A stretch of 64,000 nt of DNA, from positions 3,450-67,449 of the forward strand of contig JBBSCJ010000017.1 in assembly GCA_038250435.1 (NCBI GenBank), given 5' to 3'. Shown one piece after another: positions 45,011 to 62,429 of the stretch. The translations under genes were made by a program, and so were the position numbers. This DNA is from Gemmatimonadales bacterium. Lineage in GTDB: Bacteria > Gemmatimonadota > Gemmatimonadetes > Gemmatimonadales > Gemmatimonadaceae. The notes beneath the pieces were generated by a model. The model made no database searches, had not been told where the DNA came from, and saw only the letters and a list, made by a program, of their open reading frames with translations. The first letter of the stretch is position 1; every line of letters begins with the position of its first letter.

Positions 45011-45251
45011 TGGCGTGGGCGGTTTGGCGGCGCGTGCCGGCGGTGAAACGGACGATGAAGACGACGATGCTCCATCGTGCATCCGCGCGTGCCTGAGGGC
45101 ACGCTCCGACGTGCACCAATGCGGTCAAGGTGTGGTCACGGCCCATCACTTCGCCTCCAAACGCATGCACCATTCCAACCGCGCCTGGTGGCTCATCCGG
45201 CCCCCCCTGCTCGTGCCTTGCATGCGCTCCCAACATCACATCGAAGGCACC

Positions 45252-47245: not shown

Positions 47246-49534
47246 CTACTCGATGCGCACAATCGCCATGCGCACATCCGCCGGCAGCGCGCTGTTGCGG
47301 CCGCCTTGGACCGACAACAGCTGCGGAACGGCGAAGGTCCCCGAAAGTTCAAAGAACGCATGGGCGCCACCGCGGATCAACGCGCCGTGTGTGCCGAACC
47401 CACCAAACGCGAGCGGCGTCGCGACGAGCGGAAACGCCGTTGGAAATCGATCTCGCCAGGCGGGCGCATTATTCAGGCCCGCATAGATGTCACGTAAATT
47501 CCACGAGGAGATCTCCAGCGCCGGCGACGGCGTGGCGAGGACGGGGTTGTCATCCAGCAGCAACGCCAGTCCCCAGCTGCCGATCAAGTAATCGGCTGTT
47601 GTGCCGGATACGCTGGTCAGATTGGTCATCCCGGTGGCGGTCGCGCTCGTCAGGGCACGGAAAAACGCCGGCTCGGAAACGGCGAATCGATCGGCGGCGT
47701 AGCGTACCAACGACCATGCAGGGCTGTAGAACGTAAAGCCGGATTGACCAAAAGCGTCCCCAAAGGGCGACCTGTTGGCGGGCTCAAGCAGTTTGTTGCG
47801 CAGCTCGCTGAAGTGGCGCCGCATCCCCGAATTTGGCCGACGTAGCGCGTCGCCATCGGCGCAGGAGGCATCCGAAAGATGGAAATCGCAGAACAGTCCC
47901 GATATCGCTGCGCTTCCGAAGCCGATATTGCCCTTCCACGGTTGGCGATACAGCGATTCGCGCGCCCATACCTCTTCGGCGTGTCGCGCCGTACTCTCTT
48001 CGAGCCACACCTGCTCAAAGTTTGCCGCGCCCGCTGCGACGCGCGCGGAGTTGGAGGCAAGGTGCTTTGCTTCGTGCACCACGCTACGCGAGATGAACGC
48101 GAACCATCCGTCGGGCGATTCGGTACTTTCAACGTTCAACAGGGGGGTCACCGGCACCGCTCCGTACATCAGCTGGCCAAAATTACTTCCGGGCGCCGTC
48201 GTGCGCGGAAACTGATCGCACGTCGTCACGTACGCCGCAGCACCGGTAGCGTTGAGCCGCTGCGAGAACACCATATGCACTTTGCCGTCATTGTCGGTTT
48301 CGGCGTCGCGCAACAGCGGATCACCAAAAGTACGCGCCACCGACGCGTACTGCTCTTCATCGAAGATCTGACCGATGCGTGCGTAGTAGCCGGCGAGCCG
48401 CGCATCCGCGTTCGACTGCAGCGTGTTCGTCGTATCCTCCCAGATGATCGAACGCGTGCCCACGCGAATCGCTCGTGTGCGCATGACGCGTGAACGGTCA
48501 TTGCAGCTCGCGCCGAAGGTAAAGAAAAAGTCCCGTAACTCGCCGGTCGTAACGGCCATCGCTGCAGCGCGTTGACCCGGCAGTCGTTCGCGCAACGATG
48601 AGGGCGCGGCAGACATCAACCGCTCAGCCTCGCGGCGATCGCGCTCCAGATGTTCGCCGTGAATCGCCTCGGGCGTCGGTACCCGGGGCTGCTCGCTGCC
48701 GAGCACTTCGGCGCGCACCGGCACCGCCGGCACCGCCGACAGCGCCGTCTGCGGTGCATTGCCTGACAGCACGATATCCGCGACGGCATTCGCCGACACG
48801 GCCACATTGAACAGCGCAAGCAGATAACGGTCCGAACCGCCGATTGGTACCAACTCGTTGCACGTCGATGCGCTGGCGTTGGGCGTGATCAACAGTTGCC
48901 CGACAAGCAATGAGATCGGCGTCACGTCGACCGACAAGGAGCGCCGTATGGGTGGGGCATCGGCGACAGTCAGCACCAGTTCTGCGGGTCCGCTTTCCAT
49001 ACACGGCACATCGATGTCCAGACTCCTGCCTGTGGTGGCGACGATGGTCGCGCGTTGACCACGCACGGTCACGAAAACGCCCAAGGATGACGCCGCAAAC
49101 CCATCCCCATCGATGCGGGCTCTCGCCCCGGCTCGCAGTACCGATGGGGTACTAGCCGCAATCGACGGCAGGGGCGTAACGGTGAGACTCAGCGACCCTT
49201 GTCGCATCTCGCTGGTCGCGGTGACGAGCACGGTGCCCGCGCGCAAGGAGGTCAGCAGACCGGCGTCATCGATCGCGGCGATCGTCGGATCGCTGGTGCT
49301 CCACGTGACGGCACGTCCGGTCAACCCGGATCCGGCGGCGTCGCGCGGCACGGCGGCAAACCGCTGGGTGGAGCCCACGACCACTATCGTAGAAGGCGCT
49401 GCGACGGAGACGGTGGCTACCTGCGTTGCGACCGTGGGTGGTGATGTCGAGCCGTCCCGGCATGCGCCAAACACCAACATGGCGCTCAGCCCTGCAGCAA
49501 TGACAGCGGTCGATCGAGATGGAAACGACGGCAC
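47246..49534 (-). CDS. gluzincin-like metallopeptidase lipoprotein with Big_2 domain
   Basis: GTG 49534 preceded by GGGAGAG. Lipobox LVFGAC. Big_2-like AVTWSTSDPTIAAIDDAGLLTSLRAGTVLVTA. HEAKH followed by VWLEESTARHAEE. Paralogue of the 25013..26839 product. Confidence 0.65.
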   Translation of the reverse strand: MPSFPSRSTAVIAAGLSAMLVFGACRDGSTSPPTVATQVATVSVAAPSTIVVVGSTQRFAAVPRDAAGSGLTGRAVTWSTSDPTIAAIDDAGLLTSLRAGTVLVTATSEMRQGSLSLTVTPLPSIAASTPSVLRAGARARIDGDGFAASSLGVFVTVRGQRATIVATTGRSLDIDVPCMESGPAELVLTVADAPPIRRSLSVDVTPISLLVGQLLITPNASASTCNELVPIGGSDRYLLALFNVAVSANAVADIVLSGNAPQTALSAVPAVPVRAEVLGSEQPRVPTPEAIHGEHLERDRREAERLMSAAPSSLRERLPGQRAAAMAVTTGELRDFFFTFGASCNDRSRVMRTRAIRVGTRSIIWEDTTNTLQSNADARLAGYYARIGQIFDEEQYASVARTFGDPLLRDAETDNDGKVHMVFSQRLNATGAAAYVTTCDQFPRTTAPGSNFGQLMYGAVPVTPLLNVESTESPDGWFAFISRSVVHEAKHLASNSARVAAGAANFEQVWLEESTARHAEEVWARESLYRQPWKGNIGFGSAAISGLFCDFHLSDASCADGDALRRPNSGMRRHFSELRNKLLEPANRSPFGDAFGQSGFTFYSPAWSLVRYAADRFAVSEPAFFRALTSATATGMTNLTSVSGTTADYLIGSWGLALLLDDNPVLATPSPALEISSWNLRDIYAGLNNAPAWRDRFPTAFPLVATPLAFGGFGTHGALIRGGAHAFFELSGTFAVPQLLSVQGGRNSALPADVRMAIVRIE

Positions 49535-49925
49535 TGGTCGCTCTCCCGTACAAGGGTACCGTCGTGTCGCTGTCGGCCACTGGCTGAAGCGGTAGGCGTG
49601 GGAAAAGCTAGCGAAACCGTGCCGACGCGCCGGATGCGAATCGCATTTGTTGAGGAGTTGTGACGTACAGCCGCGATGCTCTGTGCGCGTCGTCACCTCG
49701 GCCGTGTGGTCGGCGGTGCTGCGCGGACATGTCACGTTTCTGTGGCGCTTCGGGCTTTCGCGTGAGGCCGGGCTGACGCGCGCACTGAATAGCTGAATCT
49801 GCGCTCAAGTCTGGGCACCCGGCGCCGATAGTTGCTGATGGAGGGACGCGCCGCGGCGTCTGGCCACCCGCAACTCGTCGAGAACAATCGGTGAGCACGC
49901 ATTAACGCCTATTCAGAGGTGCCGC

Positions 49926-50477
49926 TTGGCACTGGACATTCGACATGCGCTCTCCGCGAGCGCGCCGGAATCGCTATCCGAGCTCCGGGAGATGTTAGGG
50001 AGCCTCGAAGCACAGTTGGTCACGCTGTACGAGGAGAAGGAAGAGTGGAGCGCCAGCTCCGCTGCACCGGACGAGACACTCACGGCGCTGTATGAAGACA
50101 AGCAGCGGCTGAGCGCCCGTACCATCGCTGATCTCCGGGCCAGCGTGGACAGCTTTTCGGCGCAACTCGCCGAATTTTATGAGGGACGCGAGCACGAGGG
50201 CGCGGCAGTCGGCGCTGGCAGTTCCGCTGAGCTGCTCGTATCGCTCCAGTCGTTCGAGGCGCAGCTGCACGCGCTTTATGACGAGCGTTCGCTTCAGCCC
50301 TTCGGACATGGTGAGGCGGTGGAAATGGTGCATAGCCTTGAAGCGCAGCTGGTCGCGCTGCTCGATGAACGCAACGAGCTCGCCGAGCAACTCGCCCGCG
50401 CCGCGCAGGACGTGAACACCGCCAAACGGCGTGCCCGTGAGCTCGTGAACGCCGTGGTCGATCAAACATTCGCCTGA
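49926..50477 (+). CDS. coiled-coil protein with internal S-[LF]-[ES]-AQL-x-x-[LF]-Y-[DE]-E repeats, first gene of the pyp operon
   Basis: TTG 49926 preceded by GAGG. Repeats LGSLEAQLVTLYEEKEEW, LTALYEDKQRL, VDSFSAQLAEFYEGREHE, LQSFEAQLHALYDERSL, VHSLEAQLVALLDERNEL. Confidence 0.55.
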   Translation: MALDIRHALSASAPESLSELREMLGSLEAQLVTLYEEKEEWSASSAAPDETLTALYEDKQRLSARTIADLRASVDSFSAQLAEFYEGREHEGAAVGAGSSAELLVSLQSFEAQLHALYDERSLQPFGHGEAVEMVHSLEAQLVALLDERNELAEQLARAAQDVNTAKRRARELVNAVVDQTFA

Positions 50478-50527
50478 GCGCTATCGCGCTCGACTACCCA
50501 ACACTCGTGCCAGTTCTGGAGGTTTCT

Positions 50528-50902
50528 GTGTCGTTTGTTCCTTCGCAGTTCATGTCGCAAATCCCGTCGGTTGACCGCAGCCATGCTGATGATCAGTCTT
50601 TTGGTGTCGTGCAGGTTGACGACGCCGGTGTGATCAAGCTGTACAACCGGTTCGAGTCCGAGATGGCCGGCGTGGCCGTGAGTGCAGCCGAAGGCCGGAA
50701 CTTCTTCACGCACGTCGCGCCGTGTACCAACAATCGGCTCATGTTCGGCAAGTTCAAGGATGGCGTGGCCAAGGGTGAGCTCGACACCGAGTTCAACTAC
50801 ACGTTCACCTACAAGATGAAGCCGACGAACGTGCAGATCCGTTTGTATCGCCACGCCCCGTCCGCGACCAACTGGGTGCTTGTCGGCCTGCGCGCCGCGT
50901 AA
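50528..50902 (+). CDS. pyp: photoactive yellow protein (PYP, PAS-fold 4-hydroxycinnamyl photoreceptor)
   Basis: 124-aa product from GTG 50528, 5 nt after GGAGG (50518-50522). Colinear with Halorhodospira PYP as I recall it: [24 protein letters not shown] vs [71 protein letters not shown] vs [47 protein letters not shown]. Chromophore Cys codon TGT at 50723-50725. Confidence 0.9.
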   Translation: [124 protein letters not shown]

Positions 50903-50924
50903 TCATTTCTCGGCTGGAACTCGT

Positions 50925-50970
50925 GGGGCAGCACACCCGTTGCTGCCCCTGCGTGCTCGCTTTCTCTTTC
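50925..50970 (+). terminator. hairpin + T-rich tract immediately after pyp (intrinsic terminator/attenuator)
   Basis: GGGGCAGCA (50925-50933), loop CACCCGT, TGCTGCCCC (50941-50949), then ...GCTTTCTCTTTC (to 50970). Confidence 0.5.
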
Positions 50971-50971
50971 G

Positions 50972-51445
50972 ATGGCTCCCGGACAACCCATGCGCTCGCT
51001 CGCCCAACAACTGTTAGAGGTCGCCGACCCGTCGATCGTCGTCCCGACCTGCCGCAACATCGCTGAGTCTGTCGACCTGAACGCCCGGGAGAAGGAAGAC
51101 CTGGCGGCGGAAGCAGAAAGCCTGTCGGCGCAGATCACGTCACTCGCGTCGTCGCTGCAGCATCCCGACGACGAACCGGACCTGTACCGTAGCCTCGCCG
51201 CCTTGTGGCTGGAATTGCGCTTCGCCTGGCAACGGCACAACATGGTGGCGAACTACGACACCATTGGTACCGGCTCGTGCGCGCCGATCGTTCTTGCGCG
51301 CGCCTCGACGGCTTCGTTCTTTCTCCAGCGCATCGAGGCGTTGCTCGCCCGCGAGCACCTCGATAAACTCGGCGACACGGCCGTCGAACTGCTCGACAGC
51401 GTGCGAACGGACGTGGATAGCGGCAATCTTGGCGTGGCCGCGTAA
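50972..51445 (+). CDS. hypothetical protein sharing a novel domain with the N-terminus of the CheA-like protein
   Basis: 157 aa. LAALWLELRFAWQRHNMVANYDTIGTGSCAPIVLARASTASFFLQRIEALL aligns by eye with LPSIWLELRFEWMRYNMQMQYQTVLRGTADPLLMARGASLSSILDAVEFHL in the 52555..54033 product. Confidence 0.55.
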   Translation: MAPGQPMRSLAQQLLEVADPSIVVPTCRNIAESVDLNAREKEDLAAEAESLSAQITSLASSLQHPDDEPDLYRSLAALWLELRFAWQRHNMVANYDTIGTGSCAPIVLARASTASFFLQRIEALLAREHLDKLGDTAVELLDSVRTDVDSGNLGVAA

Positions 51446-51446
51446 C

Positions 51447-52547
51447 GTGTTCACGACGCTTCTGAAACGCCTGCTTCGCGCAGCCACCGCGCGCTTACCA
51501 TGGCGTTCGCGACCGCCCCTCCTCAGCGAGTCGGCAGCGCCGTCCACCGTCGCCGTGGTCTCGATCGAGATCGCGGCACCGGCACCCGCTCCAACAGCAG
51601 CCGCGGCGCCAGTAGCGGAAGCGCGGACGGTCGTGTCGCCCGCCGAACCGACGGTGGCGTACGCGCCATCCGAGGCGTGGACGGAGCGGCTGGCTGCCGC
51701 CTACGCGTTGCAGAGCGATCATGCCACTGAATCGACAAACCCTGACGCGACGGCGCTGTTGCAGCTGCTCGCGGAAGGCCCTGACACGGTGATTCGCCAG
51801 ATGCCGGCGGCGGCTCGTGAGGCGCTCGCCATCTGCGACGACAATAGCCTGTCGCGTCGCGCACTTGCGCAGCGCCTGGAACGCGATCCTGCGCTGATGC
51901 AGGGGCTGTTGCGGACCGCCAACAGCGCCGCGATCGGCGGTGGACGCGCGCCCGCTGTGGGACTCGACGCCGTACTCGATCGCATCGGCGTGGCGGGGGC
52001 GCGCGGAGTCGTGCTCGCCAACTGTGTCGATGGACTGCTGAGTCATCCGGGCGGCGAGTTCAACCGCCTCGCCAGCGAGACGTGGGCGCACATGGTGCGC
52101 AGTGCGCCGATTGCCCGCGCGGCGGCACCGGCGTTTGCGGCCGACGCCGATGAAGCGTTTACCGTCGCCTTGCTCCACGACGTAGGGAAACTTGTGGTGT
52201 TCGATCGCCTCTCCGTTTTGCGCGCGAAACGTCGACGCGCCGTGACCCTCGCGCCCGACTTCGTGCATCAGCTGCTCCAACTGCTCCATGAGCCGCTCGG
52301 CGCCCTCGCCGCGCTCCAATGGGGTATGGGTGACCGGGCCGCCACCGCGATCGGCACCCACCATCGGGTCGCGGCCGCGCGGGGACGTCATCCACTCGCC
52401 GAAGCCATCTTCTTTGCCGAACGCGCGGACCATGCCGAACGACGTCAGGAACCTTTCGATGTTGATCTCGCGTGGACCGAAGGCAAGCTGACCGGCTCCG
52501 TGAATCGCGCCGTTGCGGCGCTGCAATCGCTTCCAACCGCCGCGTGA
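51447..52547 (+). CDS. HDOD domain protein
   Basis: GTG 51447 one nt after the upstream stop (start uncertain). Ala/Pro-rich N-terminal region. HDOD signatures RDPALMQGLLRTANSAAIG and ALLHDVGKLVVFD. Confidence 0.7.
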   Translation: MFTTLLKRLLRAATARLPWRSRPPLLSESAAPSTVAVVSIEIAAPAPAPTAAAAPVAEARTVVSPAEPTVAYAPSEAWTERLAAAYALQSDHATESTNPDATALLQLLAEGPDTVIRQMPAAAREALAICDDNSLSRRALAQRLERDPALMQGLLRTANSAAIGGGRAPAVGLDAVLDRIGVAGARGVVLANCVDGLLSHPGGEFNRLASETWAHMVRSAPIARAAAPAFAADADEAFTVALLHDVGKLVVFDRLSVLRAKRRRAVTLAPDFVHQLLQLLHEPLGALAALQWGMGDRAATAIGTHHRVAAARGRHPLAEAIFFAERADHAERRQEPFDVDLAWTEGKLTGSVNRAVAALQSLPTAA

Positions 52548-52554
52548 TCGTCAC

Positions 52555-54033
52555 ATGAGCGACCGTCTGTTCGACCTGTTGACGCTTCTGGAGAGCACAC
52601 AAGTCCGGGAACGTATCCGCCAGATGATCGATGAGCTCGGGAGCATCGGCGACGACGATGCCCGAGCGCTGGAGGCGGCGATGAACGCGCGCCTCTGCGG
52701 TATTGCGGAGTCGCTCCGTGATGTCTGCATCGACGACGACACCACGGAAGCACTCGCCATGCTCCCCTCGATCTGGCTCGAGCTGCGCTTCGAGTGGATG
52801 CGCTACAACATGCAGATGCAGTACCAGACCGTCCTGCGTGGCACAGCCGACCCGTTGCTCATGGCCCGGGGCGCGTCGCTGTCTTCCATCCTTGACGCCG
52901 TCGAATTCCATCTGGATGCGGAGGCGGCGTTCATTGTCAACAAGATCGCGGCTGACCCGTCGGGGGCTGCACGCGGCGCTATCGACAAGACTGACCGACT
53001 CTTCAGCATCCTGTTCACCGCCAGCGCCGGCGGCCGCGCTGCCGTGGAAGCGCTGCTCCTCGTTCAACATCAGATCGCCAAGCATACGGATTCAATTCCC
53101 GTGCGCAACGAGATGCGAAAAGCGATCAGCACGGTCATGGAACGCATCGGCGGCGCGCTGCTCGTGACGGTCGATGACTTCATCAGTGCGCTCCAGGGTA
53201 CCCTCCTGCGCAAACTGGGCGACGCGATGGTCCGGGTGGTGCTGTATGACGCGAGTCCGAATCCCTCCCTCTGCGTGCCGAGCGCTGTCGCCAACGGCCT
53301 GCTGTCGGCCGCCGGCGACTGGATGACTGCCCTGCGCGACAGCTCCATGTCGCTCGGAGCGCGTGAACGTCTCGCAGCCGGACGGCCATCGTACGTCACC
53401 CTGACGGCGACGTTGAACCAGATCGGCGATCGCGTCGAGCTCACGCTTGCCGACGACGCTGATGGCGCCGTGTTGTACACGCCCGACTGGAACGCGTGGC
53501 CTATCAGCGATTTCACCCTGCATCTGCAGCAGGAAGCGAACGTCGGCAGCGCGCTCGTCATCAGCTGCAATGTCACCAGCATCCGGGAATACGTCATGCT
53601 GCGCGTCGGTGCCGGGGACGATGACGCGTTCATCGGCATCCCGATGCACATGATCAATCACATCGAGAGACGTGACCAGAGCGCGCTCGCGCTGCAAGGG
53701 ATGCGACTCATCGAGCGAGTGACCGGCGGAACCGTACCGCTCATCGATCTCGGCGACGCGCTCTTCGGCGCCGCGATCCCCACCATCGACGGGACATATG
53801 TGCACATACGCCTGGAAGACACAGACGTATCGCCGGGTGGCATCATCGCGGTGCGGGTACGAGGGGTGGAAGGTATCTGCCGCGGCAGCGTGCGGTCGGC
53901 CCATCAGATGCTTTCTGCAAGCCCGCTCCGCGGCTTCCTGCAGACGGACAGCCGTATCGTAGCCGTCCTGGATTTTGACCGACTCCTGGGGCACCGCGTG
54001 CGCACCCATGGGGAAGCCTTGCGGGCGGCCTGA
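52555..54033 (+). CDS. CheA-like protein: novel N-domain + degenerate HATPase (P4-like) + CheW-like (P5) domain, no Hpt
   Basis: ERLAAGRPSYVTLTATLNQIGDRVELTLADDADG resembles CheA EKRLAAGK..G.L.LSA.H.GG...IEV.DDG.G. The C-terminal FIGIPMHMINHIER...VPLIDLGDALFG...IIAVRVRGVEGI...GFLQTDSRIVAVLDFDRLLG matches the CheW/P5 pattern. N-box, G1/G2 boxes and the phosphorylatable His domain were not found. Confidence 0.55.
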   Translation: MSDRLFDLLTLLESTQVRERIRQMIDELGSIGDDDARALEAAMNARLCGIAESLRDVCIDDDTTEALAMLPSIWLELRFEWMRYNMQMQYQTVLRGTADPLLMARGASLSSILDAVEFHLDAEAAFIVNKIAADPSGAARGAIDKTDRLFSILFTASAGGRAAVEALLLVQHQIAKHTDSIPVRNEMRKAISTVMERIGGALLVTVDDFISALQGTLLRKLGDAMVRVVLYDASPNPSLCVPSAVANGLLSAAGDWMTALRDSSMSLGARERLAAGRPSYVTLTATLNQIGDRVELTLADDADGAVLYTPDWNAWPISDFTLHLQQEANVGSALVISCNVTSIREYVMLRVGAGDDDAFIGIPMHMINHIERRDQSALALQGMRLIERVTGGTVPLIDLGDALFGAAIPTIDGTYVHIRLEDTDVSPGGIIAVRVRGVEGICRGSVRSAHQMLSASPLRGFLQTDSRIVAVLDFDRLLGHRVRTHGEALRAA

Positions 54034-54035
54034 CC

Positions 54036-55673
54036 ATGTCCGAACGAACTCCTGCCTCGATCGACGTCGGCGCGGTCGTGACAACGCGGCACGTCTTCGA
54101 TATCGCACACGGGTACCGCACGGCGGCGCTCGGGAGTGCGGCGCGGGCGCGCATGCAGGCCTCACACACGACATTGGCGCGGATGGTTGCCGAGCGTCGA
54201 CGGATTTATGGCGTGACCACGGGTTACGGTCCCCTTGCCTCGCATCCAATCTCGCCCGAGCACGCCGCGACGCTGCAGCGGAACCTCGTGTACCACCTCT
54301 GCAGCGGTGTCGGCAAGCCGCTGTCGCGTCTCCACACCCGCGCGATGATGGTCGCGCGGGCCGCGAGTCTCGCTCGCGGTTATTCCGGCGTGAGTGAGAC
54401 GCTGTTCCGCACGCTGCTCGACTGCCTGGAACGCGACCTGGTACCCGTGGTCCCCGAGATGGGGACGGTGGGTGCCAGCGGTGATCTCACGCCACTCGCC
54501 CACGTTGCGCTGGCCATGCTCGGCGAGGGCGAAATGTGGTATCGCGGCGAACGCTTGCCGGCGGCGCAAGCGCTGCGCGCGGCTGGCCTGGCACCAATCA
54601 CGCTCGGCCACAAGGAGGGAATCGCCCTTGTGAATGGCACCTCGTGCATGACAGGCATCGCCGCCGTCAATGCCGAGCGTGCGCGCCGGGCCGCTGACCT
54701 CGCGCTCCGCCTGTCGGTGCTCTTTGCGGAGTGCCTGAACGGACGTCTCGAGGCCTGGGACCCCCGCTTCGCGGTCGCCCGCCCGCATGCCGGGCAGGTG
54801 GTCGCCCACGCCGCGCTCGCGCGGTGGAGTGCCGGTAGCTCACGCCTCCGCGCCACCATACAGCCCCCTGAGCGACTCGACGAGTCCGAGTCCCGCGAGG
54901 GCTGGTTGCCCGAAGGCGAGCTGCCGCAGGATCCGTACACGATCCGCTGCGTCCCGCAGCTCATCGGCGCTGTGCTGGACGTCCTCGCGTTCCACGACAA
55001 CATCGTTGCAACCGAGCTGCAGAGCGCCACCGACAATCCGCTCGTTTTCGCCGACGACGAGGCGATCCTGCACGGTGGCAATTTCTATGGACAGCATGTC
55101 GCGTTTGCCTCGGACACGCTGTTGCTTGGCGTAGCGAAGCTGGCCATTCATGCCGAACGATGCGTCGCACGCATCACCGATCGCGCGCAGAACCAGGGAC
55201 TCCCCGCGTTTCTGCACGGCGGACCCGATGGCGTGAATTCCGGATTCATGGGCGCACAGGTCACCGCCAGCGCCCTCATCGCAGAGCTGCGCACCCGCGC
55301 GGTGCCGGCGTCGATCCAGTCCGTTCCCACGAACGCCAATAATCAGGACGTCGTCACCATGGGCACGATCGCCGCGCGCAAAACAGCCGACGTGCTGGAC
55401 CTCGTTTATCTGGTGCTCAGCATCCAAGCCTTGGCGCTTGCCCAGGCGGCCGAAATGCGGGGGGGTTCGGAGCTGTCCGGCTTCGCGCCCGCCAGCTGTG
55501 CCATGGTACGATGGATTCGCGAGACAGCCTCCCCGCTCGTCGCCGACCGGCCGTTGGCCCCGGACATCGAATGCCTGGCCGCGCGACTCGAAATGGTCGA
55601 CTGGGGAAGCGAACACTGCGAGGATGCCGCGCAGACGCCGAACGACGCGGACGAACTCGCACTCGTGTTTTGA
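54036..55673 (+). CDS. tal: aromatic amino acid ammonia-lyase, predicted tyrosine ammonia-lyase (p-coumarate synthesis)
   Basis: MIO-forming GASGDLTPLAH (ASG codons 54474-54482). His-Leu (54294-54299) in NLVYHLCSGVG, at what I recall as the Tyr-selectivity switch. Same operon as pyp. No hutU/hutI nearby. Confidence 0.8.
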   Translation: MSERTPASIDVGAVVTTRHVFDIAHGYRTAALGSAARARMQASHTTLARMVAERRRIYGVTTGYGPLASHPISPEHAATLQRNLVYHLCSGVGKPLSRLHTRAMMVARAASLARGYSGVSETLFRTLLDCLERDLVPVVPEMGTVGASGDLTPLAHVALAMLGEGEMWYRGERLPAAQALRAAGLAPITLGHKEGIALVNGTSCMTGIAAVNAERARRAADLALRLSVLFAECLNGRLEAWDPRFAVARPHAGQVVAHAALARWSAGSSRLRATIQPPERLDESESREGWLPEGELPQDPYTIRCVPQLIGAVLDVLAFHDNIVATELQSATDNPLVFADDEAILHGGNFYGQHVAFASDTLLLGVAKLAIHAERCVARITDRAQNQGLPAFLHGGPDGVNSGFMGAQVTASALIAELRTRAVPASIQSVPTNANNQDVVTMGTIAARKTADVLDLVYLVLSIQALALAQAAEMRGGSELSGFAPASCAMVRWIRETASPLVADRPLAPDIECLAARLEMVDWGSEHCEDAAQTPNDADELALVF

Positions 55674-55781: not shown

Positions 55782-56945
55782 TCAAAAAATTACCGCAGTG
55801 CCGTTTCCTTGTTCGTGTGGCGTGGTATGCGTCGCGCGCCTGACAAAACGGTAGCAGCCGTCGTCGATCGCTTCGACGATATCGCCGGTGCGTTGCCACG
55901 CCGCACTGTCGCTTCGCTGTAGACCATCGCGCGTCCAGCGCCCGACGCAGGCATTCGCCCCGCGAAAGGCGAGCACGCCGTCGGAGTCGATGCGCACCTC
56001 ACACCCAATCGCACGGCCGAGTAATCGCGCGGACCACACGCCGGCCCCGCCCAGCGCGATACCCGCCGACGCTTCAGTCTGTCCGTACCCGGCACGCAAG
56101 CGTGTCGATTGCAGCTGCGTCGCGAGATTTGCGGAGATTGGTGCGCCTCCGACCACCCCGCCGGTCAACCGGCGAAGCAAGGAGGCTCCCCGTCCTTGGG
56201 CGAACAGACGCGCGGCAAGCGCCGGTCGCAGCTCCACGTGGGTTATCGGATGGGCGTCCGCCAGATCGAGCAGCGACGGGATATCCTGGCCGCCATCGGG
56301 ATCCCGTACGATTTCGTGCGCATGGAGCAGCGCCATCAGCAACCCTGTCACCAAGCCGGAGGCCTGATGCCAAGGCAGCACGCTCAGCATGCAGCCGCCG
56401 GTCGGTGCGACGAACGGCGCATGGCTGTCGAGTACGGCGAGCACGCTCGCGTCGGAGAGCGCAACCCATGTCGGTTCCCCCCTGGTACCCGATGTCCGCA
56501 GCAACACACACACGTCGGGAGTCACGGCACCATCGGCGATTCGTAGCGACGGCAAGGACCGGTCCGGCCAGCCCGCGTCACCTGGCTCGAAGCAATACGA
56601 CGCAGGCGCCACTCCTGCAGCAAATGAATCACGGACAATCAGTCGCGCATCCAGCATTGCCAGGAGCGCCTCCAGCCGATCTCCTTCGACATCGCGCGGC
56701 GCGACCGGTGCCAACGTCACGCCGTCCCACAGCGACGCGATCAGCAGTTGCACGAAGGCCGCACCGGGCGGCAGCGCGCAGACCACACGATCGCCGCGCC
56801 TGATGCCGGCCTCGCGCAGCGCGCGCACCCACTGGCGCGAGCCCGCCCACAGCGATGCCGCCGTCCAGATGTGATCGGGAAGCACCAGCAAGGGCGTGGC
56901 CTGTCCCGCAAAGCGCGCGTACAGCCGATCGCGCCATCCGTTCAT
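55782..56945 (-). CDS. pcl: 4-coumarate-CoA ligase-like adenylating enzyme (pCL), short form
   Basis: AMP-binding motifs [13 protein letters not shown] (A3), GYGQTEAS (A5), WQRTGDIV (A8). The ORF stops about 35 aa after TGD, so the usual C-terminal subdomain appears absent. Confidence 0.7.
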   Translation of the reverse strand: MNGWRDRLYARFAGQATPLLVLPDHIWTAASLWAGSRQWVRALREAGIRRGDRVVCALPPGAAFVQLLIASLWDGVTLAPVAPRDVEGDRLEALLAMLDARLIVRDSFAAGVAPASYCFEPGDAGWPDRSLPSLRIADGAVTPDVCVLLRTSGTRGEPTWVALSDASVLAVLDSHAPFVAPTGGCMLSVLPWHQASGLVTGLLMALLHAHEIVRDPDGGQDIPSLLDLADAHPITHVELRPALAARLFAQGRGASLLRRLTGGVVGGAPISANLATQLQSTRLRAGYGQTEASAGIALGGAGVWSARLLGRAIGCEVRIDSDGVLAFRGANACVGRWTRDGLQRSDSAAWQRTGDIVEAIDDGCYRFVRRATHTTPHEQGNGTAVIF

Positions 56946-56957
56946 GCGCTACGCTCC

Positions 56958-58145
56958 CTACGCCGCTGGCAGCCGTCTCACCGCCAACAACGTCACGTCA
57001 TCTGCTGGTGGCGCGCCCGCTGCATGCCCGTGAACCGCGTCGAGCACTCGGTCGAGCAGGACATCGGCGGAACCGCTCGGCGACGCAAGCAGTGCATCGG
57101 TCGCGTCATCGCCGAACAGCAACCCGTTTGGCGCACGGGACTCGGTGATCCCATCAGTAATTACCAGCAGCGTTTCGCCGGGTGCCAGCACGATCGTGCC
57201 CACCGCAAACGGAATCTCCGGCAGCATACCCACGGCCGGTCCGGTTGGCGGCAGCATCGTGCGCACGCTCCCGTTGGCGCGCACCACGCGCGGCGGCTCG
57301 TGCCCGCCGTTGACGTATGCGATCGTTCCGGTAGACGGATCGAGCGCTCCCACGAACAGCGTTGCGAACATATTTGCCCGCCCATGCGTGTTGGCGATGT
57401 AATCGTTCGTAACGGTGACCGCGTACAGCACGCGGGACTCCAACATGTCCACGGTGTGCGACCCGACCTGCGAGGCAGATACGGCGCGAATGAGCGAGCG
57501 AAACAGCGCCATGAACAGCGCGGCACCGACGCCCTTGTCGCACACATCACCGAGCACGAGAGCCACCGCGCCATCGGGCAGGCGGAACGCATCATAGAAA
57601 TCACCACCAACTTCCCGCGCCGGTTCGAAGCGCGCGGCGAGTTCATAGCCCGTCACTGCGGGCAGGCTCTCCGGCAGAAAATCGCGCTGGATGCGGGCGC
57701 CGACCTCGAGATCTTTCTGCATGCGTTGCGCGCGCGCCTGCTCGCGGTCACGCAGTCGCTTTTTCTCGAGCGACGCACCTACGCGGGCGCGCAGCAGCAC
57801 CGGATCGAACGGCTTCGGGAGATAGTCTTCCGCCCCCAGTTCGATGCACTTCACGACCGTCTCGAGCTCGGTGTTGGCCGAGATCATGATTACCGGAATG
57901 TGCTGCGTACGGTCATTCGCCTTGAGCGCAGTCAACGCCCCCAGGCCATCGAGCACGGGCATCATCACGTCGAGCATGATCAGATCCCACGACGGATCGC
58001 TCGTGAGATCGAGCGCTTCCTGTCCGTCACTGGCGGTCGTCACCACATGCCCCATCTTCTGCAGACGACGCGACAGCAGATCGCGGTTCACCTCGACATC
58101 ATCGACCACCATGATCCGTGCCGGGGCCGACCGGTCTTCAGTCAT
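56958..58145 (-). CDS. response regulator receiver + PP2C/SpoIIE serine phosphatase (RsbU/HsbR-type)
   Basis: REC domain IMVVDDVEVNRDLL...DLIMLDVMMPVLDG...KPF. PP2C region REVGGDFYDAF...VLGDVCDKGVGAALFM...GGHEPP...LLVITDGITE. ATG 58145 gives an ATGA overlap with the upstream patatin gene. Confidence 0.85.
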   Translation of the reverse strand: MTEDRSAPARIMVVDDVEVNRDLLSRRLQKMGHVVTTASDGQEALDLTSDPSWDLIMLDVMMPVLDGLGALTALKANDRTQHIPVIMISANTELETVVKCIELGAEDYLPKPFDPVLLRARVGASLEKKRLRDREQARAQRMQKDLEVGARIQRDFLPESLPAVTGYELAARFEPAREVGGDFYDAFRLPDGAVALVLGDVCDKGVGAALFMALFRSLIRAVSASQVGSHTVDMLESRVLYAVTVTNDYIANTHGRANMFATLFVGALDPSTGTIAYVNGGHEPPRVVRANGSVRTMLPPTGPAVGMLPEIPFAVGTIVLAPGETLLVITDGITESRAPNGLLFGDDATDALLASPSGSADVLLDRVLDAVHGHAAGAPPADDVTLLAVRRLPAA

Positions 58146-59074
58146 CGAACTGGCCACAGGCCTGGTGTCGGAAGCGGGCCAATCATCGATGCCTGCAGCA
58201 GGCGTCGCAAGTACGGCATCTGTTCTTCGGCGGCGCGCTCGCCTTGTTCGATGAGATACGGAATGTGCTGCGTCTCGGTGAGACCGATGTGGCGATCGAG
58301 CAAAGGCATGATCGGCAGCACTTCGGCGTGGTGCGCGACGCTGTAAAAGGCGAAGGTCGCGCGAAGCAGGTGATTGGTCACGATCGTGGACGTCCGCCCC
58401 AACGCATTCACCAGCGAGCGGACCTCGGCGTTCATCTGACTTTCAAAGCCCATCGCGAGAATGATGTCGCAGCCTTCGCGGATTGCGACATCGATCGGCA
58501 GCGGGTTTGACGCGCCGCCGTCCACCAGCATGCGACCATCGACTTCCCAGGCGCGCAGCAGCATCGGGATCGCAATGCTGGCCCGCGTGGCGTCGGTGAT
58601 GCGTCCCGAATCGAGCACAACTTTGTCGCCCGTGCGAAAATCGGTGGCCGACTGCAGCAGCGGGATTCTGGTGTCGGCAAAGGTGCGCTCGCCGAACAGC
58701 GATTCGAGCACCTTCCACACCTGACGATCGTCCACCATCCCCACCCGCTCGTGATAGCCCATGAACATCGGGGCGATCGCGCGCAAGAGGGATCGGTAAT
58801 GCAGCTTGTTGAAAAGGTCTTTCCAAAGCACCAGCGTTTGCCGCTCGATTTCGGTCGCGCTGTCGCCGAGGACGTAGAGCGCGCTGTAGATCGCGCCGCC
58901 ACTGCACCCCACCACGACGTCTACGGGGATGTTTTCGCGCTCGAGCACCTTGAGCAGTCCCACCGCAGCCGTGCACTTGATGCCGCCTGACCCGATCACC
59001 AAACCGATGCGCGCGCGGCGTTCGCCGAAGTCGCCGAGCGAACGTTCACCGGTAGCGCCGAGTCGGAGGGACAT
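58142..59074 (-). CDS. patatin-like phospholipase (copy 1)
   Basis: Oxyanion GSGGIKC, nucleophile elbow GCSGG, catalytic Asp motif VDGGASNPLP. Confidence 0.85.
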   Translation of the reverse strand: MSLRLGATGERSLGDFGERRARIGLVIGSGGIKCTAAVGLLKVLERENIPVDVVVGCSGGAIYSALYVLGDSATEIERQTLVLWKDLFNKLHYRSLLRAIAPMFMGYHERVGMVDDRQVWKVLESLFGERTFADTRIPLLQSATDFRTGDKVVLDSGRITDATRASIAIPMLLRAWEVDGRMLVDGGASNPLPIDVAIREGCDIILAMGFESQMNAEVRSLVNALGRTSTIVTNHLLRATFAFYSVAHHAEVLPIMPLLDRHIGLTETQHIPYLIEQGERAAEEQMPYLRRLLQASMIGPLPTPGLWPVR

Positions 59075-59084
59075 CAGCGCGTGT

Positions 59085-59939
59085 TCATTCAGGCACCGCG
59101 GCCAGGAGCCGGCGCAGGTACGGAAGCTGCTCCCGCATGGCGGCGTCTCCCTCGTCGATCAGCAACGGAATCTTTCCGGTATCGAACAGCCGGATACGCT
59201 GCGAGAACTGCGGGATCACGGCGATCACTTCGCTGTGGTGAGCAAGGCCGTGAAACGCGAACGACGCCTTGAGCAGGTTGTTCGTCATGATGCTGCTGAG
59301 TTGAAACGCGAAGCGTCCCCCCGACGTCACCCGGTCCTGATACGGGCTTTCGAAACCCATCGCGATAATGACGTGTGCCCCTTCGCGGATCGCCACTCCT
59401 ACCGGCAGCGGATCGGAGAGGAAGCCGTCGATGCACAGTCGGCCATTCACTTCCCACGGCGCGAACGCAAACGGAATCGCGATGCTGGCCCGCACGGCAT
59501 CAGCGAGGCGCCCTTCGCTGATCGTGACCTGCTCGCCGGTGCGGAAATCGGTGGCGGTGATGAACAGTGGGATCTTGCAGTCGGCAAAGGTGAGATCACC
59601 GAAGGCCGTGGTCAGACGCTCCCACACCACGTGATCCTTCTTGAGGCCGAACCGCTCGGTGAAGCCGAGCAGCCTGGGAAACAGCATGCGCATCAGCGCG
59701 GCGCGATCGGGCTGCGCGGTCACGTCGCGGGTCCACAACGTGGTGCTCATCGCCGCCGCTTCCTCGGCGTTCTTCCCGAGGGCGATCGCGGCAGCGTAGA
59801 TCGATCCGCCACTGCAGCCGACCACCAGGTCGATGTTGATCGACTCCCGCGCGAGGCATCGCTGCAGTCCGATGGCGGCGGCGCACTTCACGCCGCCGGA
59901 GCCGATCACCAGCGCAATGCCGCTCCCGTCACGTCTCAC
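59085..59939 (-). CDS. patatin-like phospholipase (copy 2)
   Basis: GTG 59939 overlaps the STAS stop (GTGA). GSGGVKC, GCSGG, IDGFLSDPLP. The track ORF extension to 60299 is antisense-frame overlap with the STAS gene. Confidence 0.8.
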   Translation of the reverse strand: MRRDGSGIALVIGSGGVKCAAAIGLQRCLARESINIDLVVGCSGGSIYAAAIALGKNAEEAAAMSTTLWTRDVTAQPDRAALMRMLFPRLLGFTERFGLKKDHVVWERLTTAFGDLTFADCKIPLFITATDFRTGEQVTISEGRLADAVRASIAIPFAFAPWEVNGRLCIDGFLSDPLPVGVAIREGAHVIIAMGFESPYQDRVTSGGRFAFQLSSIMTNNLLKASFAFHGLAHHSEVIAVIPQFSQRIRLFDTGKIPLLIDEGDAAMREQLPYLRRLLAAVPE

Positions 59940-60289
59940 CTGGCGCCGCCCACGTTGGCGAAGCTGGCAACGGCGCCGTCGACATCCGCAAAGCATTTGA
60001 GAATGCTGGTGAAGCCGCTCAACTCCAACACCTGGCGCACATTCGGACGGATGTCGGAGATCCGCAGATCGCCGCCGCGTTGACGCGCCTCCTTGAGCGT
60101 GGACAACAACACCCGCAGCCCGGCGCTGCTGGTATACTCGACGCCGCCGAAATGCGCGACGATGCGCGTCCGTCCGGCGGTCACTTCGTCGAGCAAAGCC
60201 GTGACGAGCGTGTCGGCGGTAAGGGTATCGATGCTGCCGGTCACGGCCACGATCGTGACGTGTTCCTGCTGCGTGATCGATATCTGCAT
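59936..60289 (-). CDS. STAS-domain anti-sigma-factor antagonist (RsbV/SpoIIAA-like)
   Basis: 117 aa. VTIVAVTGSIDTLTADTL...VEYTSSAGLRVLL (phosphorylatable Ser context)...VLELSGFTSIL. Confidence 0.85.
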   Translation of the reverse strand: MQISITQQEHVTIVAVTGSIDTLTADTLVTALLDEVTAGRTRIVAHFGGVEYTSSAGLRVLLSTLKEARQRGGDLRISDIRPNVRQVLELSGFTSILKCFADVDGAVASFANVGGAR

Positions 60290-60291
60290 GA

Positions 60292-60765
60292 CTAGGCACG
60301 TCCTGAAGGGGAAGCGCTGGCGGCGCCGCGCTTGATAAGCGTTAATCGGTTCAACATGCCCTGCGCCGTTGACACGGAGTCGTACTGCAGCTCGTCCACC
60401 ATCTGCCTTACGAGAAACCAGCCGAGTCCGCCGATCGGGCGGTCGATCCAGTCGGACACGAGGTCGGGCGTCGGGGCGTTGGCGGGATCGAACGGCTCCC
60501 CCCGGTCCTCCACGACAATGATGGCATCATCTCCGCTCCGCCGCACGGAAACGCGCGTCGGTCCCGGGGCGAGGCCGTCGGTCCCGTGTTCGACGAGGTT
60601 GGCGCAGACTTCATCCACGGACAGTACGAGCGCATCGGTCGCGCCGGCGCAGCCCAGTTCGGCGAGCGTCACCCGGAGGAATTGCCGGATGTCGCCGAGT
60701 CGATCGAGGGTGAAGGGAGACAGGGCGAGGATGCGCTCGGCGTCGGACGCCAGGGGTTCAGCCAT
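60292..60765 (-). CDS. anti-sigma regulatory factor-type Ser/Thr kinase (RsbW/SpoIIAB-like HATPase)
   Basis: ATG 60765. N-box-like EVCANLVEHG, VEDRGEPFD, GGLGWFLV. Confidence 0.75.
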   Translation of the reverse strand: MAEPLASDAERILALSPFTLDRLGDIRQFLRVTLAELGCAGATDALVLSVDEVCANLVEHGTDGLAPGPTRVSVRRSGDDAIIVVEDRGEPFDPANAPTPDLVSDWIDRPIGGLGWFLVRQMVDELQYDSVSTAQGMLNRLTLIKRGAASASPSGRA

Positions 60766-61852
60766 GCAGACTCTTCCCCGTGGCGAGCGGGATCCGGAAC
60801 ATGCGCGTCTGAAAGGAGATCGGTTCGGCGTCGTCCACTTCATCGCCCGCCGCAGACTCGATGGAGTCGGGCGCCGGCCCCTTCGCAGGAAGCATCACGG
60901 TGAACGTGGAGCCGCTCCCCGCCTTCGATTCCACCTCGATGTCACCGCCCATCATCAGGGTGAAACGGCGGCAGAGCGCAAGGCCGAGTCCCGTGCCGCC
61001 ATGATCGCGCTGCGTGGTGGCGTCGGCCTGCGCGAACGCCTGAAAGAGACGGCCAAACTGTTCTCGGGTGAGTCCGACGCCGGTGTCCTCTACGCTCAGC
61101 GCCAGAAAATCCTCGCCATGCCGTTCGGTGCGCAGGGCGCGCAAGGTCACCGTACCGTTGGTGGTGAACTTGCCGGCGTTGGACAGGAGATTGAGCAGCA
61201 CCTGACGCACCTTGCCGGGATCGGCGGTCATGCTGCCGACGTCGGCGTCGCTGTGCACCACGAACGCATTCCCCTGCTTCTTCACCACCGGCGCGACAGT
61301 GCCTTCCACCTCGCGCAGGAGCGTGGCCACGTCGACCCTCTCGAGATTGAGCTCCATGCGCCCGGCTTCGATCTTCGAGAAGTCGAGCACATCATTGATC
61401 AACCCCAAAAGGTGTTTGCCGGCGCCAGTGATTCGCTTGAGGTCGGCAGCGATCTCGACAGCGGTCATATCAGCCGCATCTTCCTGCAGCATTTCGCTGT
61501 AGCCGATAATGGCGTTGAGCGGCGTACGCAGCTCATGGCTCATGTTTGCCAAAAACATGCTCTTGGCTCGGCTTGCCGCTTCCGCCTTTTGTCGTGCCTC
61601 CGTGGCCGCATCGCGCGCCGCCCCAAGCGCACCAATCGTGGTATCGAGTTCTTGCCGCTGGCGTGCGGCATCGTGCTGCAGCTTCCTCTCGCGCCCACGG
61701 AAGTACGCGAGGAGCGCGGCAACGGAAAGCGTGAGGATGACACTGGCCAGCAGGAGCGAAGCTGGGGACACGACAGCTACCGATTCAGGTTGTACGCGCG
61801 CGGTCGCTCTCGGGACGCCGATGAGAACAGCCCTGCCAGCGGGCTCGCCCAA
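60758..61852 (-). CDS. membrane-anchored histidine kinase without recognisable sensor domain
   Basis: One TM (SLLLASVILTLSVAALLAYF), coiled coil, H-box FLANMSHELRTPLNAIIGYSEML, N/G boxes (LLNLLSNAGKFT, DTGVGL, GGTGLGL). Start uncertain: TTG 61852 after GGGAGG, or GTG 61771. Confidence 0.8.
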   Translation of the reverse strand: MGEPAGRAVLIGVPRATARVQPESVAVVSPASLLLASVILTLSVAALLAYFRGRERKLQHDAARQRQELDTTIGALGAARDAATEARQKAEAASRAKSMFLANMSHELRTPLNAIIGYSEMLQEDAADMTAVEIAADLKRITGAGKHLLGLINDVLDFSKIEAGRMELNLERVDVATLLREVEGTVAPVVKKQGNAFVVHSDADVGSMTADPGKVRQVLLNLLSNAGKFTTNGTVTLRALRTERHGEDFLALSVEDTGVGLTREQFGRLFQAFAQADATTQRDHGGTGLGLALCRRFTLMMGGDIEVESKAGSGSTFTVMLPAKGPAPDSIESAAGDEVDDAEPISFQTRMFRIPLATGKSLHG

Positions 61853-62081
61853 GTTGACGCAGGCCTCCCGAAATGGACGCGCGGAAATATGCCGCGATCT
61901 CGTACGGCTTGGTAACCCGTATCCCCCGCATCTTTGCGAGCGGCGTTGACCATCGTTCCCAACCCCCCGCGACGTGAACAGATCACGAACAATCCGGGAT
62001 CGTCCTGAACTTGCATGGGAGACGCGGATGTTCACCGCGCACACCGCGCACTCAGGCAGGCACGACTTCTGGAGGGACTTC

Positions 62082-62429
62082 ATGGCTCGCGGCGCTGATA
62101 CCACAGTCACCAAAATCGATTCATCGACCTCACCGGTCGGGGCTGACGGCGAGGTCTACCTTGCCTCGGGAAAGTCGCTGTCCATGCGCATGTGGCGCGA
62201 CGAGCCGCCGGCCGACTCCAAACCGGCGAGTCGCCGGGAGTACGAAACCGTAGGCTACGTCCTCGACGGGCGGGCGGAATTGCACATCGAAGGACAGATG
62301 GTGTTGCTCGAACCGGGAGATTCCTGGGTGGTGCCTCTCGGTGCAGAGCACAGCTACAAGATTCTCGAAACCTTCAGCGCCATCGAAGTCACGCATCCGC
62401 CCTATCAGGTGCACGGACGCGCGGAGTGA
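62082..62429 (+). CDS. cupin domain protein
   Basis: ATG 62082 preceded by GGAGGG. Cupin motifs GYVLDGRAELHIEGQMVLLEPGDSWVVPLGAEHSY. Confidence 0.7.
   Translation: MARGADTTVTKIDSSTSPVGADGEVYLASGKSLSMRMWRDEPPADSKPASRREYETVGYVLDGRAELHIEGQMVLLEPGDSWVVPLGAEHSYKILETFSAIEVTHPPYQVHGRAE

Follow-up and report, generated by a model that had tools for sequence, protein, structure and literature searches.

Organization of the operon and its products

We analyzed a 64,000-nucleotide (nt) stretch of contig JBBSCJ010000017.1 from a Gemmatimonadales bacterium, hereafter the window, in which a minus-strand operon encodes a partner-switching system together with two patatin-like lipases. The open reading frame (ORF) listing, Pfam and NCBIfam placed seven genes on this strand. 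They encode a histidine kinase (HK), an RsbW-like serine kinase, a STAS protein, patatin-1, patatin-2, a protein with a receiver domain (REC) and a SpoIIE/PP2C phosphatase domain (REC-PP2C), and an enzyme resembling pCL, the chromophore ligase of photoactive yellow protein (PYP). The first six genes, from HK to REC-PP2C (61771 to 56958), are designated as the cassette. All coordinates are those of the window and are summarized in Table 1. For comparison, 185,579 species genomes (one genome per species) were scanned with a patatin profile, which gave 292 relatives. The locus counts below are from the best 80 of these, searched with all window proteins by tblastn; L001, L010 and similar labels denote the fetched comparison loci.

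Table 1 Predicted features of the operon and its neighborhood in the 64,000-nt window.
Feature	Position	Strand	Basis
HK, HisKA and HATPase_c	60758-61771	-	Pfam HisKA 1.9e-20, HATPase_c 4.6e-26
RsbW-like HATPase_c_2 serine kinase, anti-sigma type, 157 aa	60292-60765	-	Pfam 6.4e-21
Single-domain STAS, anti-sigma-factor-antagonist type, 117 aa	59936-60289	-	Pfam STAS 9.6e-21
Patatin-1, 284 aa	59085-59939	-	Pfam Patatin 4.6e-30
Patatin-2, 310 aa	58142-59074	-	Pfam Patatin 8.8e-28
REC-SpoIIE/PP2C, 395 aa	56958-58145	-	Pfam Response_reg 4e-28, SpoIIE 3.1e-44
pCL-like AMP-binding enzyme, 387 aa	55782-56945	-	Pfam AMP-binding 2.9e-26, no AMP-binding_C
Intergenic region between HK and divergent cupin gene	61772-61973		Presumed operon promoter region
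Cupin-domain protein, divergent from HK	61974-62429	+	Cupin_2 3.5e-11
PYP	50507-50902	+	FFTHVAPCT motif; TIGR02373 110 bits, below cutoff of 143
Aromatic ammonia-lyase (TAL)	54036-55673	+	Converges on the operon

A preliminary description of this region had proposed seven tightly packed or overlapping genes with these domains, and Pfam, NCBIfam and reading of the junctions bore it out. The HK stop and the kinase start overlap by 8 nt (ATGGCTGA), with the ATG of the kinase inside the overlap, and a gap of 2 nt separates the kinase from STAS. The GTG start codon of patatin-1 overlaps with the stop codon of STAS (GTGA), and the ATG of REC-PP2C overlaps with the stop codon of patatin-2 (ATGA), as had been noted before. 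Gaps of 10 and 12 nt lie between patatin-1 and patatin-2 and between the PP2C stop and the pCL start, respectively. One boundary was corrected: the HK gene had been extended to 61852, where the codon is TTG. Judging from the orthologous ORFs of 341–346 aa in L011 and L008, the gene starts instead at a GTG (61771), which immediately precedes the codons of the single transmembrane (TM) helix.

Three Logan contigs from three sequencing runs encoded products of identical length (157, 117, 284, 310, 395 and 387 aa, by independent gene calls) and reproduced the PP2C-to-pCL junction. Because three independent Logan assemblies agreed, the arrangement is not an assembly artifact. The guanine-plus-cytosine content of the window was 62–68%, and base composition did not shift at the cassette. 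A scan of the operon yielded no sigma-70 consensus promoter and nothing informative on terminators.

The HK is built of one N-terminal TM helix, a coiled-coil linker, HisKA (MSHELRTPLN) and HATPase_c, and Pfam detected no recognizable sensor domain in it, including PAS or another light-sensing type. The RsbW-like kinase gave weak matches to the RsbA and RsbW models of NCBIfam and to the RsbW structure 6m36, and its N-box (E..N..H), DRGEPF and GGLGW were all present. The N-box and the G2 box (GGLGW) were kept across loci; the G1 box varied, and its glycine was lost in some lineages. STAS scored 78 bits against TIGR00377, above the cutoff of 53, and matched the SpoIIAA and RsbV structures, 1th8 among them. 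Its predicted phosphorylatable serine, Ser-55, sits in YTSSAGLR, a motif that was almost invariant across 81 loci, and aligned by eye with that of SpoIIAA DSSGLG. REC-PP2C matched the P. aeruginosa PA2798 (RssB) structures 3eq2/3f7a over its full length (E = 5.5e-29), and its receiver motifs (DD, D, K) were conserved, as were those of PP2C (GDFYD, DVCDKGVGAA, TDG, DD), the latter in about 80 loci. The operon thus holds the parts of a partner switch, namely an antagonist with a conserved serine, a HATPase_c_2 kinase with ATP-binding boxes and a PP2C phosphatase with metal-binding aspartates, but no cognate sigma factor is encoded with them.

The oxyanion, G-x-S-x-G nucleophile and D-G aspartate motifs of PF01734 are present in both patatins, reading GSGGVK, GCSGG and DG in patatin-1 and GSGGIK, GCSGG and DGG in patatin-2. 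The catalytic serine was kept in 82 of 83 loci for patatin-1 and in all 83 for patatin-2, and DG likewise in 82–83 of 83. Both proteins are predicted to be lipid acyl-hydrolases. Their C-terminal helices are specific to the clade and contain an invariant motif, FAF..AHH.E (residues 241–251 of patatin-2). The two paralogs share 50% identity and fall into two orthologous groups, and the group of the first patatin was also found in L004 and L005; the sequences indicate that the split predates the spread of the cassette. The AlphaFold2 model of patatin-2 had a predicted local distance difference test score of 86 and a predicted template modeling score of 0.85. Foldseek returned PlpD (5fya) as the best match to this model (template modeling score 0.70/0.85, E = 2.7e-20), followed by CapV and CapE; patatin 1oxw and iPLA2-beta were also matched. 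The model confirms the predicted patatin alpha/beta fold for patatin-2. Patatin-2 is predicted to be cytoplasmic, as neither a signal peptide nor a TM helix was visible by eye.

We searched for the sigma factor that such a module would normally control. The queries were seven reference sigma-70-family proteins and two small hidden Markov models built from them. No sigma-70-family protein was detected by phmmer and hmmsearch among six-frame ORFs of the window of at least 60 aa, at E-values up to 1–10, with sigma-54 outside the search. This result agrees with the earlier statement that neither the operon nor the window contains a sigma factor gene. The search works, because the same procedure recovered four extracytoplasmic function (ECF) sigma factors from the fetched loci. 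These ECF genes were scattered over 4 of 89 loci and lay outside the cassette; no sigma factor was found inside any of 80 cassettes or in the Pfam-annotated loci L001–L005.

Conservation and variants of the cassette

Among the 80 best loci, about 75 showed the order RsbW–STAS–patatin(–patatin)–PP2C unchanged. STAS was detected in 76 loci, the RsbW-like kinase in 75, REC-PP2C in 76 and the upstream HK in 64, and nearly all misses of a component were contig ends. Median gaps between the matched segments from RsbW to PP2C were 34–47 nt. The loci belonged to Gemmatimonadota (19), Acidobacteriota (23, mostly with one patatin), Xanthomonadales (11), Bacteroidota/Rhodothermales (10), Burkholderiales (7) and Chloroflexota (7). 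The cassette is conserved in at least six bacterial phyla. The preliminary description had pointed to two patatins in the sigma-factor position of a sigma-less partner-switching operon and proposed conservation of the neighborhood as a test. The patatins and the partner switch passed together in about 75 of 80 loci from six phyla, and the association with PYP and pCL failed in all 80.

The best homologs of patatin-2 were from Gemmatimonadota, followed by proteins with 55–60% identity, one of which was labeled Lysobacter. The six-gene order was seen with Pfam annotation in L001–L005, including Lysobacter sp. A286. Three Pfam-annotated contexts, one of them on a 1.4-Mb metagenomic contig, contained HK, (REC), HATPase_c_2, STAS, patatin, patatin and REC-SpoIIE. 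More distant patatins (150–250 bits against the family profile) stood alone in unrelated contexts. The association with the cassette is therefore a property of one patatin clade, and in the sampled loci this clade occurs essentially only inside the cassette context.

The surroundings of the cassette in most Gemmatimonadaceae are a stable syntenic block of housekeeping genes, with those for aminotransferase, alcohol dehydrogenase and acyl-CoA synthetase. The acyl-CoA synthetase neighbor was considered as a lipid-related signal across phyla and rejected, as it was confined to this one Gemmatimonadaceae block and to L019, L030 and L064.

Six Gemmatimonas metagenome-assembled genomes (MAGs) with 84–87% nucleotide identity aligned with the window by blastn from 61790 to 56980 only (to 56954 in one of them), that is, from HK to the PP2C stop. 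Neither flank of the window aligned in these MAGs, and most of them shared both flanks with each other. Because most of the MAGs have common flanks, the genome of the window is the rearranged one. In this lineage, the whole cassette seems to have moved to a new location in one piece, and it is horizontally mobile or at least modular.

Variant loci indicated which parts of the cassette can be exchanged. In L090 (8710–14986), STAS and a patatin come first, the next product (1159 aa) joins a second patatin to two FHA domains and an ABC-2 transporter, and a Hanks-type Ser/Thr kinase follows; this locus has neither the RsbW-like kinase nor PP2C. It suggests that Thr-phospho/FHA signaling can replace the partner-switch enzymes and link the lipases to a membrane transporter. 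In L030 (6655–10837), the RsbW-like kinase is fused to STAS directly upstream of a patatin gene. The phosphatase of L059 (1–7971) is CHASE2-GAF-PP2C instead of REC-PP2C. The kinase of L004 and its relatives has its own receiver domain, and a MASE2 hybrid kinase and a stand-alone receiver lie upstream of the kinase in Xanthomonadales. Ten long family members were further scanned for fusions with Pfam, and patatin-patatin (P0171 and P0204), patatin-FHA-ABC, patatin-Omp85/POTRA and cyclic nucleotide-binding (cNMP)-patatin fusions and a GNAT remnant were found. The inputs and even the phosphorylation chemistry vary, and the constant core is STAS plus the patatin(s).

Two of these variants have additional genes. 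In L030, the RsbW-STAS fusion is preceded by an 832-aa protein that combines an alpha/beta-hydrolase with an acyl-CoA-synthetase-type enzyme. In L059, genes for a FecR-domain protein and for a major facilitator superfamily transporter that carries a cNMP-binding domain are interleaved.

The PYP-TAL/pCL unit next to the cassette

Plus-strand PYP-TAL genes converge on the operon, as had been described. Between PYP and TAL lie an ORF of 151–157 aa, an HDOD protein and a protein of about 500 aa with a C-terminal CheW-like domain. The preliminary description had also taken pCL, the last gene of the operon, to tie the module transcriptionally to this photoreceptor locus. No homologs of pCL, TAL, PYP, HDOD or the CheW-like protein were found in the 80 cassette loci, the sole match being a partial TAL-like sequence in L058, far from the cassette. 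A search with pCL showed that the PYP–ORF–HDOD–CheW-like–TAL/pCL unit is intact in L087, L088 and L094, where pCL is preceded by a DapA-like gene, a deaminase-like gene and a DUF2490 gene, respectively. In one genome (GCA_038210005.1/JBBQXC01), the cassette (L010) and the PYP cluster (L094) are on different contigs. Gene order indicates that pCL belongs to the PYP-TAL/pCL unit and that a rearrangement specific to this lineage placed it beside the cassette. Read-through from the cassette is probable, but pCL has no functional role in the switch. The association with PYP is accidental and local to this gene order, and the cassette therefore says nothing about PYP signaling.

The pCL of the window was 77–78% identical to the pCL proteins of 473–480 aa in L087, L088 and L094, but lacked GRATDSFKLSNG (A8) and AKGE (A10 lysine) carried by these orthologs. 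No remnant of the missing C-terminal subdomain was found in other frames. Almost all pCL homologs among the matches listed were about 410–540 aa, and the few shorter ones were mostly on short contigs. The truncation is real, because the identical truncated protein was found in three assemblies. In addition, the ANL motif LPWYHAFG reads LPWHQASG. An adenylate-forming domain is encoded next to pyp and tyrosine ammonia-lyase genes, as expected of pCL, but the ANL enzyme is incomplete. The protein may be an impaired or inactivated chromophore ligase.

The PYP cluster itself is a wider unit. A coiled-coil ORF, PYP, the small ORF, HDOD, the CheW-like protein and a tyrosine/histidine ammonia-lyase (49926–55673, plus strand), with the convergent pCL, recur together in at least four Gemmatimonadota contigs. 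Identities of the unit to those of L087, L088 and L094 were 88% for PYP, 85–88% for TAL and 59–70% for the CheW-like protein, and the N-terminal part of the latter resembles the 151–157 aa ORF. PYP is genetically tied to the CheW-like and HDOD proteins, which may bear on its signaling partner.

Other neighbors of the operon were recorded. The adjacency of the divergent cupin gene to the cassette was not conserved in other genomes. Upstream of the PYP cluster, two large predicted secreted/surface proteins are encoded on the minus strand (42227–45082 and 47246–49735); C-terminal RCC1-like repeats (CWG.N..GQLG) are visible in the translation of the first.

Proposed output of the switch and alternatives

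The cassette probably represents one conserved signaling-plus-effector unit, in which the output of the partner switch is the patatin pair and not a sigma factor. The membrane-anchored HK would phosphorylate the receiver domain of the PP2C phosphatase, and this phosphatase and the RsbW-like serine kinase would together set the phosphorylation state of the single-domain STAS protein. The switch would then govern the activity or the membrane access of the paralogous cytoplasmic patatins encoded between STAS and PP2C, which probably act as a heterodimer. Control of the lipases would thus be post-translational. A direct contact of STAS with the lipases is conceivable, and we hold this view tentatively. 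It is favored over a contact by the kinase because L090 keeps STAS while the kinase and the phosphatase are exchanged, and because STAS proteins carry the output in HsbA- and SypA-type systems. That the RsbW-like kinase itself touches the lipases, sequestering them in place of the sigma factor, seems unlikely. We infer that the physiological role would be remodeling or turnover of membrane lipids upon an envelope or stress signal. As a speculation, the sensor-less membrane-anchored HK and the MASE2/CHASE2 sensors found elsewhere would fit a signal from the envelope or the membrane state.

Several points weigh against the patatin pair as the output. We infer, rather than observe, a direct contact of the patatins with STAS or RsbW. 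Co-transcription by itself does not prove regulation. No STAS-patatin or RsbW-patatin fusion was seen by Pfam among the ten long family members, and L090 is a single example. The inspection covered the best 80 of the 292 loci only. The switch could also have a distal target, for instance a sigma factor whose gene lies outside the 64-kb window. Partial correlations of mirror trees from 51 loci were highest for the two patatins (0.44) and for STAS and patatin-2 (0.42), and only 0.12, among the lowest values, for the known RsbW-STAS pair; because this known pair scored so low, the method was judged uninformative here.

The module might act on a target elsewhere, a group-3/ECF sigma factor or another protein, with the patatins merely co-transcribed in a stress operon. 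Distal targets are frequent among orphan RsbV/RsbW/PP2C modules. No fusion of patatin to STAS or kinase was found, and only 64 kb of the genome is in view, which leaves room for such a target. We nevertheless regard this as unlikely, since in six phyla the patatin genes lie inside the switch, flanked by those of STAS and PP2C, and overlap or nearly abut their neighbors, and since their clade was not found outside the cassette in the sampled loci. L090 retains STAS and both patatins despite replacement of the kinase and the phosphatase, and the cassette contains no sigma factor gene, nor do its 10-kb flanks in nearly all cases. The patatins could instead be membrane-destroying effectors of a defense or suicide module, released upon phage infection or severe damage like CapV and CapE of the cyclic oligonucleotide-based antiphage signaling system (CBASS). 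CapV and CapE ranked second after PlpD in structural similarity, PADLOC gave matches to phospholipase effectors (31–34 bits), and the cassette has a patchy distribution over several phyla and moves as a unit. Against these stand the nature of the PADLOC matches, which were weak (16–34 bits), to generic phospholipase effectors or to REC only, with none for the kinase, STAS or HK. The neighborhood in most Gemmatimonadaceae is the stable housekeeping block and not a defense island, and the input comes through ordinary two-component, CHASE2 or MASE2 sensors. We consider a role in defense highly unlikely.

The preliminary description had further suggested a light-linked output, in which PYP controls the lipases in response to blue light through co-transcription of pCL. 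The position of pCL 12 nt past the PP2C stop in three independent assemblies and the convergence of the PYP-TAL unit on pCL speak for this suggestion. It is not supported by the comparison: pCL, TAL and PYP occurred in none of the 80 cassette loci, and homology to the nearest relatives ends at the PP2C stop. The PYP unit is conserved separately, with other genes upstream of pCL in three clusters, and one MAG splits cassette and PYP cluster over two contigs. With a truncated pCL that may be inactive and an HK devoid of PAS or another light-sensing domain, a light-linked lipase is extremely unlikely.

We next compared the cassette, read as a switch with a patatin output, with known systems. B. 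subtilis RsbU/RsbV/RsbW-SigB-RsbX likewise has a STAS antagonist with a phosphorylatable serine, a HATPase_c_2 kinase and PP2C phosphatases (6m36 and 1th8 were matched), and in rsbV-rsbW-sigB-rsbX an output gene also lies between the V/W pair and a PP2C gene. Here, two patatin lipases occupy the position of the sigma factor, the kinase precedes STAS (W-V instead of V-W), and the phosphatase is driven by a receiver and an HK instead of RsbT or an energy sensor. In P. aeruginosa HptB-HsbR-HsbA, Shewanella CrsR-CrsA and Vibrio fischeri SypE-SypA, as in the cassette, a His-Asp phosphorelay feeds a REC-PP2C protein. STAS proteins of the HsbA/CrsA/SypA type carry the output to non-sigma or indirect targets, including FlgM, the diguanylate cyclase HsbD and biofilm functions. 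These systems offer the best functional analogy for an output from STAS to an enzyme. However, REC, PP2C and HATPase_c_2 are fused in HsbR/CrsR and encoded by separate genes here, and no lipase is known to take part there; in L004, REC is fused to the kinase and not to a PP2C-kinase protein. Bordetella BtrU/BtrV/BtrW and Chlamydia Rsb likewise form complete partner-switching sets whose operons contain no cognate sigma factor gene. They act on type III secretion or on metabolism/transcription, their phosphatase has no receiver, and no lipase gene is known to be embedded in them. CapV and CapE of CBASS, which are activated by cyclic nucleotides, and cNMP-binding-patatin fusions are cytoplasmic patatins that a dedicated signaling module holds under tight allosteric control, as proposed here. 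In the cassette, this control would be protein phosphorylation and partner exchange instead of a nucleotide ligand, and its patatins lack a ligand-binding extension.

The similarity to RssA and RssB was analyzed with NCBIfam models NF007623, NF045505 and NF007969. Pseudomonas RssB (PA2798), which is paired with a STAS protein, was the sole full-length match of a solved structure to REC-PP2C and also its best NCBIfam match (RR_RssB_Pseudo). In E. coli, rssB is preceded by the patatin gene rssA, and RssA was the best NCBIfam match for both patatins. All scores were far below the equivalog cutoffs, at 79 and 74 bits against 272 for the patatins and, for REC-PP2C, 119 against 700 (Pseudomonas) and 74 against 329 (E. 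coli). The patatins were only 28–30% identical to E. coli RssA in the catalytic core, and PlpD matched at least as well; E. coli RssB aligned with the REC domain only. RssB targets RpoS, and neither a kinase nor a STAS gene is part of the rssA-rssB operon of E. coli. Membership in RssA/RssB was rejected, as BLASTP and NCBIfam indicated generic similarity, which may reflect analogy or distant kinship.

A literature search found no report linking patatins to partner switching, STAS, anti-sigma antagonists or PYP, with thin coverage of subscription journals, and full-text queries for partner switching with phospholipase gave unrelated papers only. This is in line with the earlier remark that no described case with patatins or PYP was known. 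The sigma-less partner switch with patatins is real and ancient, and apparently undescribed. It could perhaps be the first partner switch with a lipid hydrolase as its direct output, although we put this at somewhat less than even; in at least six phyla, phospho-STAS or the kinase would then bind a heterodimeric cytoplasmic patatin and gate its activity, and the enterobacterial rssA-rssB pairing would look like a reduced relic of this design. To our knowledge, phospho-regulation of a bacterial cytoplasmic patatin has not been described; such control is known for the eukaryotic lipases cPLA2, ATGL and PNPLA. If the patatins are the output, the cassette would parallel these lipases, widen the outputs of STAS signaling by a class of enzymes, and allow two-component-driven post-translational remodeling or degradation of the cell's own membrane lipids. 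Many bacteria have RsbV/RsbW/PP2C modules with neither a sigma factor nor a known output. Because a candidate output is encoded inside this module and conserved with it, the question of the output is directly testable here, and Luteimonas (such as L. suaedae), Lysobacter, Variovorax soli (such as NBRC 106424), Ottowia thiooxydans and Gemmatimonas are culturable hosts.

A further structural match concerned the receiver and kinase domains. PDB 9qih chain A ("SenB", 304 aa), which consists of a receiver and HATPase_c_2, matched both the REC domain of the PP2C protein and the RsbW-like kinase, and its architecture is that of the L004 kinase.

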